Below are positions 11,383 to 39,189 of a stretch of 64,000 nt of DNA, piece by piece (position 1 is the first letter of the stretch; each line of letters starts with the position of its first letter). This DNA is from an uncultured virus (IMG/VR IMGVR_UViG_3300045738_002143) (lineage: Duplodnaviria; Heunggongvirae; Uroviricota; Caudoviricetes). The position numbers were made by a program, and so were the translations under genes. The notes below the pieces were generated by a model, which worked only from the letters and a program-made list of their open reading frames with translations, was not told the DNA's origin and did not search any database. The stretch lies in the IMG/VR virus record IMGVR_UViG_3300045738_002143; one strand, 5' to 3'.

Positions 11383-13041
11383 ATGGCTAACAAGAGTCTT
11401 TTTGGAACTAAGACTGAAACCGAAAAAGCCACCGCAGTCAATGCTGCTGGTGGTCGTGCATACGAGTCGTCTCATAAGCAGGCTCTTGCGCAGATTGCTG
11501 CCACGAATTGCTTTAATGGAACCTACTACGCTAGGGCCGAGGACAATCTCAAGATTGCTCGTGATGCTGCGCAGAATTTAGTTGATGATCCACAGTTTAT
11601 CGCTAAGGTTGCATTATATTCTCGCAGCAAGTCTTACATGAAAGACATGCCAGCGTTCTTGACGGTTGTGTTGGCTGGGATCGATACCAAATTATTTAGG
11701 CAGGTGTTCCCGCTCGTGATCGATAATGGGAGGATGTTGCGTAATTTCATCCAAATTGCTCGCAGTGGGCAGACTGGCCGCACTTTTAATATGTCGGCTG
11801 GTACGTGTCGTCATGCAATTCGTGATTGGTTTGCCAGCAAGTCATCTCATGCAATTTTCAAGGCTTCTATCGGCAACGATCCTTCCATGCGAGATATTTT
11901 GCGCATGGCTCGTCCCCGACCGGATTCTAAGGAGAAGGCGGCTCTGTACGGTTATCTCAAGGGGGCCGAACTAGACAAGAAGACTGGTGCATACCGGACT
12001 TACAATAAAGATGGCAGTGTTCGTTACGAGCATCCTTTCGAGGCTCTGCCGCAGATTGTGCGTGAATACGAGCAATATAAGATGACCAAGGAAGGTACAC
12101 CACCGAATGTAGATTTCCGTATGTTGGATTCATTGGGTTTAGGTCAGTCTGAGTGGACAGACATCGCTCGAAATGCTCCGTGGATGATGACTCGGATGAA
12201 CCTGAACACGTTTGCACGTCATGGTGTATTCGAGGACACCGAGGTTAGTGATCTAATTGCGGCTCGTTTGAGCAACCGTGAGCAGATCGAGAAGTCCCGT
12301 ACTTTCCCATATCAGTTAATGTCTGCTTGGAGGGCCACTAGCGGGAACGAGAAGGTGCCGCATAATGTTCGTGAGGCGTTACAGGATGCGATGGAAATCG
12401 CAATCGATAATGTGCCGAAGATCAATGGTCAGGTATTCGTCTGTGTGGATACTTCAGGCTCTATGGGTTCGCCCGTCACTGGAGATCGTAGGGGATACGG
12501 CGCTCCAAGCACGAGTGTTAGTTGTGTAGACGTGGCCGGTTTGATTGCGTCGAGCGTGGTTCGCAAGAATAGTTCTGCCCAGGTTTTAACCTTCAAGAGT
12601 GATGCTGTACGTGTAGAATTGAACCCAAGGGACACTGTGTTAACCAATACTGAGAAGTTGGCTAGTGCTGGTGGTGGGACTAACTGTTCTTCTGCTTTGG
12701 CCAAGCTGAATCAAGAGCGGGCCACGGGTGATGTAATTATCTATGTCTCGGATTACGAGTCGTGGGTAGATTCTGGATATGGCTATGGATATGGTGCTGG
12801 TACTGGTATGCTCTCCGAGTGGAGTAATTTTCAGGAGCGGAATCCAAATGCCAAGTTGGTTTGTATAGATTTGACTCCGGGGTCTAACAGTCAAGTGAAG
12901 GAACGGCCCAATATCTTGCAAGTTGGAGGTTTCTCTGATACTGTGTTTGATGTGGTTAAAAACTTCATCGAGCATGGCGATAGTGATAATCACTGGGTTG
13001 ATGAGATTGAGAAAATCGAAATTAATTCTGAAAAGGCTTGA
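11383..13041 (+). CDS. Ro60/TROVE-domain RNA-binding protein (Rsr-like)
   Basis: N-terminal NAAGGRAY, TROVE region, vWA with DTSGSM MIDAS, GGTNCS, VGGFSD. Confidence 0.92.
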   Translation: MANKSLFGTKTETEKATAVNAAGGRAYESSHKQALAQIAATNCFNGTYYARAEDNLKIARDAAQNLVDDPQFIAKVALYSRSKSYMKDMPAFLTVVLAGIDTKLFRQVFPLVIDNGRMLRNFIQIARSGQTGRTFNMSAGTCRHAIRDWFASKSSHAIFKASIGNDPSMRDILRMARPRPDSKEKAALYGYLKGAELDKKTGAYRTYNKDGSVRYEHPFEALPQIVREYEQYKMTKEGTPPNVDFRMLDSLGLGQSEWTDIARNAPWMMTRMNLNTFARHGVFEDTEVSDLIAARLSNREQIEKSRTFPYQLMSAWRATSGNEKVPHNVREALQDAMEIAIDNVPKINGQVFVCVDTSGSMGSPVTGDRRGYGAPSTSVSCVDVAGLIASSVVRKNSSAQVLTFKSDAVRVELNPRDTVLTNTEKLASAGGGTNCSSALAKLNQERATGDVIIYVSDYESWVDSGYGYGYGAGTGMLSEWSNFQERNPNAKLVCIDLTPGSNSQVKERPNILQVGGFSDTVFDVVKNFIEHGDSDNHWVDEIEKIEINSEKA

Positions 13042-13073: not shown

Positions 13074-13135
13074 GATCGGAATGCAGGTGGGATTACATCA
13101 AATGCAAAAAAAATCTCATCGACCCTTGTCCGATC
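13074..13135 (+). ncRNA. Y RNA-like RNA 1 (Ro-binding stem)
   Basis: GATCGGA/TCCGATC and GGTGGGATT/AATCTCATC helices; internal-loop motif GAATGCAGG..GAyCCTTGTC shared with copy 2; adjacent to Ro60 gene. Confidence 0.75.
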
Positions 13136-13145
13136 TGTATTTTAT

Positions 13146-15225: not shown

Positions 15226-15553
15226 AGTCTGGGACAGCCACGGTCAGAAGTTTGAGGCGAATTCCAATATGACAGATTATAAAATAGTAGAACATTTCTT
15301 TACCTGTGACTGTATGTCTCACGGATTACGAATAGTCTCGTATGATTGGGATGGAGACTGGCCACAAGATGAAGACATTAATATAGAACTATGGAAGTGC
15401 GTAGGTACTGGCCGTAAGGGTGTGTGGCATAGAATTAAGATGTGCTGGAATATAATGTGGCATGGTAGGGATTATGTTGACGATATTGTGTTAAAGAGAG
15501 AGGACGCTAAACGTCTAGCGGAAGTTATAATCGAGTTAACAGGGGAAAACTAA
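15218..15553 (+). CDS. Hypothetical protein
   Basis: ORF coupled to neighbours. Confidence 0.55.
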   Translation: MYEVWDSHGQKFEANSNMTDYKIVEHFFTCDCMSHGLRIVSYDWDGDWPQDEDINIELWKCVGTGRKGVWHRIKMCWNIMWHGRDYVDDIVLKREDAKRLAEVIIELTGEN

Positions 15554-15690
15554 TGGAAAACACTATAATTGTTGCTGCTATACTTTGCTTTCTACCAATA
15601 ACACACTTAATATACATTCCAACCAGCATCATCTTCAATCTGGATACATTGGGCTTTTATTTTGCGGGAAAAATCAATAGCTAGCTACAT

Positions 15691-15764
15691 TGTCGAGTCT
15701 CGAAAGAGATCGGCGGTCCCTACGAACTGGGTCAGGTCGGAAACGAAGCAGCCCTAGTAGGGAT
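15691..15764 (+). ncRNA. Minimal bacterial-type SRP RNA (4.5S-like, helix 8/domain IV)
   Basis: GGGTCAGGTCGGAAACGAAGCAGCCC (CAGG/AGCA symmetric loop, GNRA-type apical loop), GAAC asymmetric loop, closing GTCCCTAC/GTAGGGAT; 5' GAAA hairpin. Confidence 0.85.
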
Positions 15765-15774
15765 TTTATAAAAT

Positions 15775-15846
15775 GCCGGTGTAGCTCAGTGGTAGAGCAC
15801 TGGTTTTGTAAACCAGTTGTCGTGAGTTCGATCCTCTCCACCGGCT
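15775..15846 (+). tRNA. tRNA-Thr(UGU)
   Basis: Cloverleaf GCCGGTG/CACCGGC, anticodon loop TT-TGT-AA; no encoded CCA. Confidence 0.95.
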
Positions 15847-15875
15847 CTTCAGCGTTTTTTCGCACGCTTTCATTG

Positions 15876-15980
15876 GGGACCAAGTTCCTCGTCGCCTCGG
15901 CTCACTGTATGAACGACCCATCCTTGTTCATCGCCCCTTTGGGGTATACAAGCTTGCAGACTTACTCCGTCATAAGGCGG
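15876..15980 (+). ncRNA. Unassigned structured RNA candidate
   Basis: GGACCAAGT/ACTAGGTCT closure, TGTAT/ATACA, GAAC/GTTC, GCCCC/GGGGT, CCGTC/GGCGG; G-U pairs favour + strand. Confidence 0.5.
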
Positions 15981-16050
15981 TTCTATTATCACTAGGTCTA
16001 ATTTGTGTGTTGGTACGTATATATTATTAGAACTTAAATTGATCTGGGAG

Positions 16051-27372: not shown

Positions 27373-28767
27373 ATGACAGAGCAGGTTGCCAAGAGTGAAT
27401 ATAAATATGGTTTTCACGACAATAATGTAAACATCGAGACGTTCGACAAGGGCCTGAGCGAAGATGTTGTTCGTCGAATTTCTGAAATAAAAAGTGAACC
27501 AGAGTGGATGCTGGAATATCGATTGAAAGCTCTTGATATATTCTATAAAAAGCCCATGCCTATGTGGGGCGGAGACATGAGTGGCATAAACTTTGATAAT
27601 ATTATTTATTACGTAAAGCCATCAGACAAACAAGAGAACGACTGGGACGATGTTCCTGATGAAATAAGAAAAACATACGATAAACTGGGTATTCCTGAAG
27701 CTGAAAAGAAATATCTAGCTGGTGTGAAAGCTCAGTATGAATCCGAAGTAATATATGGAAGCCTTGAAGAAGGTCTAGAAAAGCAAGGTGTAATTTTTCT
27801 TAGTACCGATGAAGCGTTGAAAAAACATCCTGATTTGGTAAAGGAATATTTCGGAACAATTATCCCTCCTGCGGATAACAAATTTGCAGCCTTGAATACG
27901 GCAGTTTGGAGTGGAGGTTCATTTATCTATATTCCAAAAGGCGTTAATGTTGAATTTCCTTTACAAGCATACTTCCGCATTAATTCAGAGAACATGGGGC
28001 AATTTGAAAGAACGATTATCATTTGTGATGAGGGTTCACAGGTTCACTATGTTGAGGGCTGCACCGCTCCAATTTGGACATCAGATTCTTTACACTCGGC
28101 TGTTGTTGAAATTGTTGTAAAGAAAGATGCTCGTTGTCGTTACACTACAATTCAGAATTGGTCAAACAACGTATACAACCTTGTCACTAAACGAGCGATG
28201 GCCTATAGGGATAGTGTAATGGAGTGGGTTGACGGGAATCTGGGTTCTAAACTTACGATGAAATATCCGTCAATTTACATGATGGAACCGGGGGCACGAG
28301 GTGAAATTCTTAGTATTGCTTTTGCCGCCAGGGGCCAACATCAGGATGCTGGAGGCAAAGTGGTTCATTGTGCCCCAAACACTTCTAGCCGGATCGTCTC
28401 AAAGTCAATTTCTAAAGATGGTGGAAGATCGTCATATCGAGGTCTTTGCAAAGTGGTGAAAGGAGCAAAGAATTGTAAGTCTAATGTTGTTTGTGACGCA
28501 CTTATTCTTGATCCAGAAAGTCGATCTGATACTTATCCTTACATTGAAGTTGATGAAGAAAATGTATCCATAGAACATGAGGCGTCAGTAAGCAGGATTG
28601 GGGAAGAACAATTGTTCTATTTAATGTCTCGTGGCATGTCGGAATCTGAAGCATCTACGATGATTGTAAGCGGTTTTATTGAACCGTTAACCAAAATACT
28701 TCCAATGGAGTACAGTATAGAAATGAATCGCCTAATTGAACTGCAAATGGAAGGTTCTGTGGGATAA
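27373..28767 (+). CDS. sufB: Fe-S cluster assembly protein SufB
   Basis: [42 protein letters not shown]. Confidence 0.97.
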
Positions 28768-31930: not shown

Positions 31931-32305
31931 GTGGAAGCAGTCAAACAAGTGATCGTGATTCGGCGAGATTTGAAAATGCGCCGGGGGAAGGAGATCGCTC
32001 AGGGTAGCCACGCTAGTCTAGCTTTTATCACTCGTCAGCTTCAACATGGCAACAAGGTGAAACTTTCAAAAGTGGCGAAGCAATGGATCGATTCTAGTTT
32101 TGCCAAGATATGTTGTCGAGTAAATTCTGAAGAACAACTACTTGATATTTATCAACGGGCAAAAGATGCTATGTTGGAAGTTCATCTGATTACCGATAGT
32201 GGTAAGACGGAGTTCGATGGGGTTCCAACAAAAACGTGTTTGGCTATTGGGCCAAATTTGTCCGATGAAATAGATGAAATTACAGGCGAGTTGCAGTTGT
32301 ACTGA
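31931..32305 (+). CDS. pth2: Peptidyl-tRNA hydrolase type 2 (Pth2)
   Basis: KQVIVIRRDLKMRRGKEIAQGSHAS..DSGKTE..TCLAIGP..IDEITGEL. Confidence 0.93.
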   Translation: MEAVKQVIVIRRDLKMRRGKEIAQGSHASLAFITRQLQHGNKVKLSKVAKQWIDSSFAKICCRVNSEEQLLDIYQRAKDAMLEVHLITDSGKTEFDGVPTKTCLAIGPNLSDEIDEITGELQLY

Positions 32306-33747: not shown

Positions 33748-34176
33748 TTAACTAAAAGATCGTCTAAGTGAAGGGTGGTGTAAGTCAGTATGACAGTTCA
33801 AGCATAAAAGTTGACATTTGTTGGATTCTTCCAATAAAGTTTCCCATTTGTGATTTGAACACGCACGTAGGTCTAATCCAAAGTTTTTAGTTGCTGGATT
33901 AATGTGGTGGAAGCTAAGAGCGGAGTAGTTGTATTGATAACCACAAAGTTCGCATTTTCCACCTTTTCCTTCGACTAGATTAATCTTGCGTTTTAGACCA
34001 CGTTTCTGTTGCGAAGCATAGTTTTGGTGCTTGATGTTGCCATGTTTATTATGGCATTTTCGAGAACAATATTTTGCTTGCCTACCAGATAATGTCTTGC
34101 TGCAAACAACGCATTTTATATGACGTTCTTTTATTGGGTTGCTATTAGTTTTCATGTGATTATGGGAGTAGTTCAT
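33748..34176 (-). CDS. Intron-encoded HNH endonuclease (antisense)
   Basis: CELCG..ALSFHH..KCQLLCLNCH..H plus N-terminal CVVC..YCSRKC. Confidence 0.85.
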   Translation of the reverse strand: MNYSHNHMKTNSNPIKERHIKCVVCSKTLSGRQAKYCSRKCHNKHGNIKHQNYASQQKRGLKRKINLVEGKGGKCELCGYQYNYSALSFHHINPATKNFGLDLRACSNHKWETLLEESNKCQLLCLNCHTDLHHPSLRRSFS

Positions 34177-34359
34177 AATCGTTTTGAAGACTTTTAGTAG
34201 AATTTGTCAAATTCAGGGAAGGCTAAGTTTCTTAGGAAATATGCTAATCCTGAGCCAAGCTCGTAAGAGAAGGTGCAGAGACTAGACGGCAAACCCGTAA
34301 AGGGAAGGGATAGTCCAGGCCACAAACTTGAAAGAGGCGGCGAAAGTCGTAGTGGTAAG
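33749..34359 (+). mobile_element. Group I intron (IC3-like)
   Basis: P AAATTCAGGGAA, Q AATCCTGAGC, R GCAGAGACTAGA, S AGGGATAGTCC; P3 TTTGTC/GGCAAA; exon ends in U, intron ends in G. Confidence 0.9.
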
Positions 34360-38145: not shown

Positions 38146-39189
38146 TTAGAGTGTTAATTTTCCTTCACTAGCGGTTCCCGTTCTGGTGGCGGCGGTACAA
38201 AATGCTTCTTGCACTGCTGTCAATGTAGCATCTGTTCCGTCCCATTCTTTTAACGCTGGTTGTTGTAATCCACGCCCGTATGAAAAAGTTAGTCGCCAAG
38301 GGCAATGAGCACCTTCTGCAATTTTATTGATCTTGTTAAGCCTATCATTGGCATCGTGGTCGCTTTGACCTCCAGACAGGAATGCAATTCCTGGTACGGC
38401 TCCTGGCACGGTGTCTAATAAGCATTGGACAGTTTTTTCTGCTACCAAATCGTTTAGTTCTTGGCTTAATTGCAGACTGCTGGCAGTTGGTGCGTGGATA
38501 TACGTTTTGGATTGGTAGCCGGGTAATACCATGTTGGGCTTTAATATCATTTCATTGAAATTTACACCTAATCGGAAGAGTTGATCGAACGTGGTGTGTA
38601 GAACCTCTCTCGTGATGCTGAATACACGGTCGATTGATAGCTCGTGATCCATGATAATTTCTGGTTCTACAATGGGCACCAATCCGCATTGCTGAGATAT
38701 TCTGGCATATCTGGCGAGTGCGTAGGCATTGGCTTCTACATTACCTTTACTGATGTGGCAGCAAGTTCCTGGCGAAAGTACGGCTCGCCACTTTGTAAAC
38801 CTTGCACCAAGTTCACGATAGCGATCTAGTCTGTCGGCAAGACCGTCTAGACCTTCTGTGATTTTTTCGCCTTTATCGTTCCACGGCTTGGTCCCCTTGT
38901 CTACTTTGATACCGGTAAGAACCCCAAGCTGGGCGAGGATTGATGGGATTGGAAGTCCGTCGTCTCCCAATTGTTCAAGTGTTTCTTCAAATAGAATGAC
39001 GCCGCTAATGTGCTTATTCATGTCCTTGGTAGAGAATAAGGCGTTTCTGAATTTGCGACGGTTTTCCGGCGTAGACTCGACGCCGATGGCGTCGAGTCTT
39101 TTTGTCATTGTAGGATTGCTTTCATCGGCAGCCAAAATGCCTTTTCCGTCTGCCATCAATTCTTGTGCTATGTTTTTTAGATCGCTCAT
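38146..39189 (-). CDS. Fructose-bisphosphate aldolase class I
   Basis: GKGILAADES, GIKVDKG, KWRAV, VPIVEPE, LKPNM, FLSGGQ, FSYGR. Confidence 0.95.
   Translation of the reverse strand: MSDLKNIAQELMADGKGILAADESNPTMTKRLDAIGVESTPENRRKFRNALFSTKDMNKHISGVILFEETLEQLGDDGLPIPSILAQLGVLTGIKVDKGTKPWNDKGEKITEGLDGLADRLDRYRELGARFTKWRAVLSPGTCCHISKGNVEANAYALARYARISQQCGLVPIVEPEIIMDHELSIDRVFSITREVLHTTFDQLFRLGVNFNEMILKPNMVLPGYQSKTYIHAPTASSLQLSQELNDLVAEKTVQCLLDTVPGAVPGIAFLSGGQSDHDANDRLNKINKIAEGAHCPWRLTFSYGRGLQQPALKEWDGTDATLTAVQEAFCTAATRTGTASEGKLTL

Follow-up and report, generated by a model that had tools for sequence, protein, structure and literature searches.

A candidate miniature SRP RNA, reduced to the Ffh-binding tip, upstream of a tRNA gene in DNA assigned to a huge marine phage

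A 49-nt hairpin located just upstream of a tRNA-Thr gene in the DNA of an uncultured virus (IMG/VR record IMGVR_UViG_3300045738_002143) is best explained, judging from its sequence and predicted fold, as a true gene of the phage, coding for a miniature SRP RNA that consists only of the Ffh-binding tip (domain IV). The SRP occurs universally and is essential, and research on its RNA goes back decades. The best reading of the function of the phage element is that it would act as a phage-supplied SRP RNA or as an Ffh decoy. The whole stretch of DNA analyzed, 64,000 nt in length, is hereafter referred to as the window, and the features of the locus are as follows.

15691..15715, plus strand: hairpin A, 10 bp with one bulged G and a GAAA tetraloop, from the MFE fold; abuts the SRP-like hairpin B
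15716..15764, plus strand: hairpin B, the putative minimal SRP RNA, domain IV (helix 8) only; from the covariance models RF00169 and R2 and the fold
15765..15774, plus strand: A/U-rich spacer of 10 nt, with U at tRNA position -1; read from the sequence
15775..15847, plus strand: tRNA-Thr, anticodon UGU; from ARAGORN and RF00005 (70.2 bits)

The original prediction had described an SRP helix-8 signature in a hairpin of approximately 49 nt, preceded by a separate GAAA hairpin and ending 10 nt before tRNA-Thr, and all of these elements were recovered. The MFE structure of positions 15685–15774 consisted of two adjoining hairpins (-33.4 kcal/mol, z = -3.79), and none of 200 shuffled sequences was as stable; for hairpin B alone (49 nt; -21.1 kcal/mol, z = -3.0), 2 of 200 shuffles were as stable. 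Specifically, hairpin B begins with an outer stem of 8 bp (15716–15723 with 15757–15764), followed by an asymmetric loop in which 5′ GAACU (15724–15728) faces 3′ UA (15755–15756), so that the longer side is the 5′ side and is A/C-rich, as in RF00169. A 4-bp helix (15729–15732 with 15751–15754) leads to a symmetric loop of CAGG (15733–15736) against AGCA (15747–15750), which is exact at the upper-case positions of the RF00169 consensus, and the tip is a GAAA tetraloop of the GNRA type (15740–15743) closed by a 3-bp helix. In SRP RNA, the symmetric internal loop is the core of the Ffh M-domain site. The distal region of the rod is absent in both the fold and the RF00169 alignment, as hairpin B closes after 8 bp. 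The distance from the end of hairpin B to tRNA-Thr is exactly 10 nt. A stable 5′ hairpin abutting the SRP hairpin, like hairpin A, was also clear at two other viral loci of the same type (L134 and L129, described below), whereas it was ambiguous at the remaining minimal loci because the automatically drawn hairpin borders were unreliable; the role of hairpin A may be to shield the 5′ end or to stack on the SRP hairpin. A hydrophobic ORF of 43 aa (15553–15684) ends 6 nt 5′ of hairpin A and, from its sequence, may encode a small membrane protein directly upstream of the miniature SRP RNA. This ORF matched no family in Pfam or PHROGs, and a 236-aa ORF downstream had no relatives among the viral contigs.

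The search with the Rfam model of the bacterial small SRP RNA (RF00169, Bacteria_small_SRP), which the original prediction had named as its check, gave a hit at positions 15708–15784 with 44.1 bits against a gathering score of 40 (E = 3.1e-6 over both strands of the 64-kb window and all 4227 Rfam families); without a terminal helix formed with bases of the tRNA, the score would not reach this threshold. In this alignment, the outermost helix pairs positions 15708–15715 with the first bases of tRNA-Thr, which is probably an artefact of the full-length model. The well-aligned part of the match covers model positions of about 23–68; the alignment agrees with the conserved consensus positions of domain IV, with GAAA replacing the consensus GGAA tetraloop, and about 20 rod positions, in the stretches of about 9–22 and 71–86, are deleted. 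Because the distal rod that defines the family is missing, the element is regarded as a truncated viral variant and not as an ffs gene. The covariance model R2, for which 11 minimal hairpins from further viral contigs, but not the window, were used, matched positions 15714–15769 with 56.7 bits (E = 4.6e-21).

When the exact 26-nt tip of hairpin B was searched in one genome per prokaryote species, 31 loci were found. In total, 29 of them belonged to Planctomycetota (Fuerstiella, Planctomycetaceae, Tepidisphaerales, and Phycisphaerales) or Verrucomicrobiota (Akkermansiaceae and Verrucomicrobiaceae) and had rods spanning 81–124 nt in the folds, including two that were misfolded in the MFE structure and are of the same sequence type. 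Set against these 29 full-length bacterial SRP RNAs with the identical tip, the predicted lack of the distal rod held. Compared with bacterial 4.5S RNA (ffs, RF00169), hairpin B has the same GNRA tetraloop, CAGG/AGCA loop, A/C-rich asymmetric loop, and helices between them, whereas below the asymmetric loop it differs from the host-type RNA, being only 49 nt long, with an unrelated 8-bp stem and without the distal GTPase-docking region. Its gene is also carried by a phage and lies 10 nt before a tRNA, in contrast to the stand-alone cellular gene. No tRNA was located within 120 nt at any of the 31 tip-identical genome loci, indicating that the tRNA linkage is a feature of phages. The other two loci (L220 and L229) were minimal hairpins with the window's exact 26-nt tip on short MAG contigs of 3.3 kb (Gemmatimonadaceae bin) and 11 kb (Alphaproteobacteria bin), and they may be phage fragments binned into MAGs. 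Since the host-type tip is kept exactly, it hints that the phage probably infects marine Planctomycetota or Verrucomicrobiota. A protein with an FGE-sulfatase domain in the window agrees only loosely with such a host.

In terms of gene content, 81 ORFs of the window were scanned against Pfam and 41 against PHROGs, and phage-typical genes were found. The window encodes an NAD-dependent DNA ligase, a Ro60/TROVE protein, two sigma-70-like ORFs, HNH endonucleases, CsrA, a cold-shock protein, PTH2, and thioredoxin, together with four scattered tRNAs detected with ARAGORN. No ribosomal or other cellular housekeeping genes were identified with Pfam among the 81 ORFs, and no structural gene was present in the window. 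A search with the Ro60 protein identified 12 viral loci, two of which (L191 and L192, on contigs of 102 and 259 kb) had the gene neighbourhood of the window, consisting of a 209-aa ORF, thioredoxin, ligase, CsrA, Ro60, and a sigma factor; the identities to the window were 48% for the ligase and 59% for Ro60. The 259-kb IMG/VR record as a whole (G001), which is syntenic with the window, contained 48 tRNAs and a tmRNA, and its PHROG matches included a major head protein (E = 2.5e-22), a head maturation protease, head-closure and tail-fibre proteins, a UvsX-like recombinase, a DnaB-like helicase, DNA polymerase, thymidylate synthase, PhoH, and many homing endonucleases. Because of its synteny with this record carrying head, tail, and replication genes, the window is, as far as gene content and order tell, a fragment of a huge tailed phage of marine origin. 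The viral nature of the contig, which the original prediction had asked to be confirmed, is thus supported by the synteny and by the lack of housekeeping genes, and the hairpin is not the normal ffs of a cellular chromosome. In a Pfam search for hallmark genes, Terminase_6N was found in one of five viral records, and the tail sheath family gave no match above its cut-off; the assignment to a phage came instead from the PHROG matches of the whole of G001. Among GenBank phages, a megablast search with 25 kb gave no match, and a blastn search with 3 kb gave only matches to tRNAs. Near-identical DNA was present in the metagenomes of 14 studies (marine, hydrothermal-vent, and marine-sediment).

Several other features of these genomes were observed. 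A group I intron lies at 34142–34340 of the window (58.8 bits; gathering score, 50). The window also contains a large glycan-synthesis block with eukaryote-like families unusual for a phage (21706–25317, 36422–37000, 45042–46560, and 52926–55735), comprising three GT29 sialyltransferase-like ORFs, NeuB, exostosin GT47, GT34, UDP-galactopyranose mutase, and a methyltransferase fused to an FGE-sulfatase domain. Auxiliary genes (27373–28767, 38146–39189, and 31931–32305) encode SufB/D (Fe-S cluster assembly), a class I fructose-bisphosphate aldolase, and PTH2, the last of which is a peptidyl-tRNA hydrolase of the archaeal/eukaryotic type. The Ro60 homologue (11383–13041) is followed directly by a weak match to YrlA, a Y RNA-like element (13074–13138; 20.8 bits, E = 0.43), and far stronger YrlA matches lie directly downstream of Ro60 in relatives (55.7 bits in L190 and 45.3 bits in L194), so that the window probably carries a diverged Ro60–Y RNA module approximately 2.6 kb upstream of the miniature SRP RNA. 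The Ro60 genes adjoin tRNA clusters in the Ro60-bearing relatives. G001 (L234–L246) contains a phrog_506-type transposase in six or more copies, a DNA polymerase gene whose parts flank homing endonucleases, and two tRNAs that have CUA anticodons and were called Pyl by ARAGORN.

The truncated design recurred in other viral contigs. The 24-nt core of the window's hairpin was found exactly in three of them, located between two tRNA-Ser genes in L001 and L003 and just upstream of tRNA-Leu in L002. With RF00169, the L002 homologue scored 41.9 bits, and the local core of the L001 homologue alone scored 33.7 bits, which is under the gathering score. A degenerate tip pattern searched in IMG/VR identified 67 viral loci, of which the 42 non-redundant ones were classed by eye from their folds: 22 were long-rod SRP RNAs, many of them at contig ends, like prophage borders; 11 were minimal hairpins (L134, L137, L139, L140, L161, L162, L164, L168, L177, L127, and L129); six were chance matches without helix pairing; and three were cut by the contig end. 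The 24-nt core of the window was exact in L139/L001 and L140/L002. A tRNA on the same strand was located within 60 nt at nine of the 11 minimal loci (all except L127 and L129) and at none of the 22 long-rod loci; in two of the latter, a tRNA lies 102 nt upstream. Both L127 and L129 were stand-alone, with a 5′ hairpin and a terminator of their own and no tRNA. The window belongs to the phage minimal class, as it has a domain-IV-only hairpin (about 26–55 nt in this class) and a same-strand tRNA within 60 nt. The other viral hairpins thus share the truncated design and, except for the two stand-alone loci, the tRNA adjacency, but they differ from the window in their outer stems, neighbouring tRNAs (Ser, Leu, Phe, Arg, Gln, and Ala), and surrounding genes.

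When the 12 minimal hairpins, including that of the window, were aligned, helices 2 and 3 were paired in 100% of cells, although for helix 3 this is partly a selection effect because the minimal set was picked by eye from folds. All three pairs of the tetraloop stem change on both sides, and the covariation score was 0.555 versus 0.183 in shuffles, with none of 500 shuffles reaching 0.555, a result to be read in the light of the similar covariation of bacterial SRP RNAs. The outer stems, which vary in length and register among the 12 hairpins, were 58% paired in the ungapped alignment. Two small viral contigs in IMG/VR (L147 and L184) contain, at about 385–440, an SRP RNA that is AT-rich and has a rod of roughly 100 nt; it lies 102 nt after a cluster of tRNA-Lys, tRNA-Lys, and tRNA-Leu and may be a phage-borne full-length SRP RNA or host DNA. 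In a scan with a loose tip pattern, the matches listed were mostly chance matches in coding sequences.

The miniature SRP RNA had no credible match in the 12 Ro60-anchored relatives and five whole records (20–100% complete), where the sole match was partial (E = 0.41). Its absence from the closest Ro60-linked relatives indicates that it is not a core gene of this phage lineage. R2 found no copy in two published huge-phage genomes of 735 and 462 kb (Al-Shayeb et al. 2020). When the 49-nt hairpin was searched against GenBank phages with blastn, eight weak records were obtained, and the best of them, Rhodococcus phage E3, was rejected as a chance match: it is antisense inside a CDS, its score with the class models R1 and R2 is 16.5–18.5 bits, the AGCAGC motif is missing, and the sequence does not fold (z = +0.57).

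At the level of strains, contigs from three other studies (X3, X9, and X17) span the hairpin, and a further one (X2) covers position 15735 onward. C15701T affects the C-G pair that closes the loop of hairpin A, turning it into U-G, and C15723T does the same to a C-G pair in the outer stem of hairpin B; pairing is kept in both cases. T15728C, found in all four other strains, turns the asymmetric loop into GAACC, the consensus of the class. Variation in the hairpins was not below that of the flanks in the X9 contig (2 of 74 positions versus 12 of 672). In the X3 strain, positions 15854–16003 downstream of the tRNA, a non-coding region of 150 nt whose fold is not unusual (z = -1.4), are replaced by 44 other bases, and the hairpin–tRNA module is retained. 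This module persists across other marine metagenomes.

The Ffh/FtsY GTPase domain (PF00448) was detected in none of the five carrier records, one of which is 96% complete, and in none of the 81 ORFs of the window, while the controls were positive in 14 of 14 genomes; the protein partner of the RNA must therefore be that of the host. As described in passages of PMC5454536 and PMC4091067, FtsY first binds the tetraloop, and the GTPase pair then moves to the distal site, leading to GTP hydrolysis and cargo handover; the latter source also ascribes to the tetraloop a large acceleration of SRP–receptor assembly. According to sections of a preprint (bioRxiv 10.1101/378745), transport is abolished and GTPase activity attenuated once the distal stem has been shortened by more than 14 bp (citing Ataide 2011), and over-expressed SRP RNA variants without the docking fold are lethal in E. 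coli. An excerpt of PMC11404819 reports that a mimic of the tetraloop (PNA) prevents formation of the SRP–receptor complex.

Against this background, we propose that the miniature RNA would be co-transcribed on the plus strand with tRNA-Thr and that, given the position of the tRNA 5′ end, cleavage by RNase P at 15775 would release an RNA of about 60–85 nt, in which hairpin A and the SRP hairpin are followed by a tail of 10 nt. As the known roles of the motifs suggest, the symmetric and asymmetric loops would bind the M domain of the host Ffh, and the GNRA tetraloop would still be able to recruit the receptor FtsY. Because the distal rod is absent, Ffh loaded with the phage RNA could not finish the normal targeting cycle; it would stall, with GTP hydrolysis not activated and with no rod on which Ffh and FtsY could dock. 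The miniature RNA would thereby compete with the host SRP RNA for Ffh and act as a dominant-negative decoy, damping or rewiring co-translational membrane-protein targeting during infection, a reading to which we assign a probability of roughly 45%. It is consistent with a tip-only design that recurs beside tRNAs, lacks the distal rod, and keeps its pairing. On the other hand, a block of the SRP might also harm the insertion of the phage's own membrane proteins, the element is missing from the closest Ro60-linked relatives, and the strain variation inside the hairpins is no lower than in the flanks. The wider proposal, that several unrelated large-phage lineages encode domain-IV-only decoys that are cut from tRNA precursors, capture the host Ffh and FtsY, and stall targeting, is more tentative still.

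The main alternative is that the phage supplies a working minimal SRP RNA, which would keep Ffh loaded, stable, and able to meet FtsY during the shut-down of host transcription. Insertion of the phage membrane proteins would thus be secured, and the RNA would be part of the translation-support kit of huge phages (tRNAs, tmRNA, and peptidyl-tRNA hydrolase). This is compatible with the surrounding translation-related genes (four tRNAs, PTH2, CsrA, and the cold-shock protein) and with the 48 tRNAs and tmRNA of the relative G001. Moreover, fragments of E. coli 4.5S RNA of the size of domain IV have been reported to support growth. The tetraloop, the accelerator of SRP–receptor assembly according to PMC4091067, is also kept. 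However, the distal truncation would abolish cargo transport according to the preprint section cited above (bioRxiv 10.1101/378745, citing Ataide 2011), and a shortage during infection is not obvious, since the host SRP RNA is presumably stable. Furthermore, neither the window nor any of the 11 minimal viral copies has the distal site, even though the host RNA is only about 50 nt longer, which would be unexpected for full function. Sequence alone cannot separate a decoy from a substitute; it is this consistent loss of the distal site in every viral copy, at a saving of merely about 50 nt, that leads us to favour the decoy and to regard the substitute as less likely.

The tight coupling to tRNA genes also raises the question of a target other than Ffh: the hairpin could act as a decoy against a host nuclease or defence system directed at SRP RNA, make contact with the translation machinery, or serve as a structural leader for the processing of tRNA-Thr. 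By analogy, phage tRNAs replace tRNAs cut by host anticodon nucleases. Phage tRNAs are proposed to counter tRNA-targeting defences (PMC10264068). Nevertheless, a processing hairpin would not need to preserve every Ffh-contacting motif exactly across unrelated stems, and no nuclease targeting SRP RNA turned up in the literature searches, which were aimed elsewhere; such a target is therefore considered improbable.

Even less probable is an inert relic, i.e., a fragment of a host ffs left by recombination, or the remnant of an attachment site within ffs, that no longer has a function. Temperate phages integrate into ffs (PMC12540744), many of the long-rod SRP loci in IMG/VR resemble prophage borders in their position, and the tip is identical to the host-type sequence. 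However, the remnant of an attachment site would hold the 3′ terminal piece of ffs and not both apical strands closed by a new, unrelated 8-bp stem, and at least 11 other viral loci, nine of which adjoin tRNAs, show the same truncation with stems that differ. We rejected the attachment-site origin on these grounds, and the compensatory changes and wobble-preserving strain variants, which keep the pairing, speak against a functionless fragment in general. A chance resemblance was also rejected, as the truncated design recurs in at least 11 other viral loci with its pairing kept by compensatory changes.

In full-text literature searches, no description of an SRP RNA encoded by a virus turned up; the closest publication concerns a phage attachment site inside ffs (PMC12540744). 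The main text of the survey of huge phages (PMC7162821) does not mention SRP, signal recognition, 4.5S, Ffh, or FtsY, and that of a paper on phage G (PMC12484599) does not mention SRP, signal recognition, or 4.5S. The tRNAs and tmRNA of huge phages (Al-Shayeb et al. 2020, PMC7162821) are likewise small RNAs linked to host translation in phage tRNA regions, but they are full-size and functional, whereas the miniature SRP RNA is partial. Engineered 4.5S truncations and tetraloop mimics, which disturb SRP function in the laboratory according to the excerpts cited above, similarly keep the tip without the docking site; the element described here differs in being natural, virus-encoded, and embedded in a tRNA transcription unit.

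The recurrence of the element in phage tRNA clusters implies selection for a partial activity, and its sequence suggests that the phage engages or blocks the membrane-targeting machinery of the host. A natural RNA with the Ffh site and the tetraloop but without the distal site is the separation-of-function construct that biochemists make by hand. If the wider decoy proposal is true, it would be the first case of a viral RNA mimicking SRP RNA and a new route of host takeover at the level of membrane-protein biogenesis, and the tip, being tuned to the host, would serve as a marker for host prediction (in this case Planctomycetota or Verrucomicrobiota). If the miniature RNA binds Ffh, three ideas become testable: that phages manipulate membrane-protein targeting, that tRNA-processing enzymes are put to a new use in releasing an effector RNA that is not a tRNA, and that a short host-matched tag may link uncultured huge phages to their hosts.
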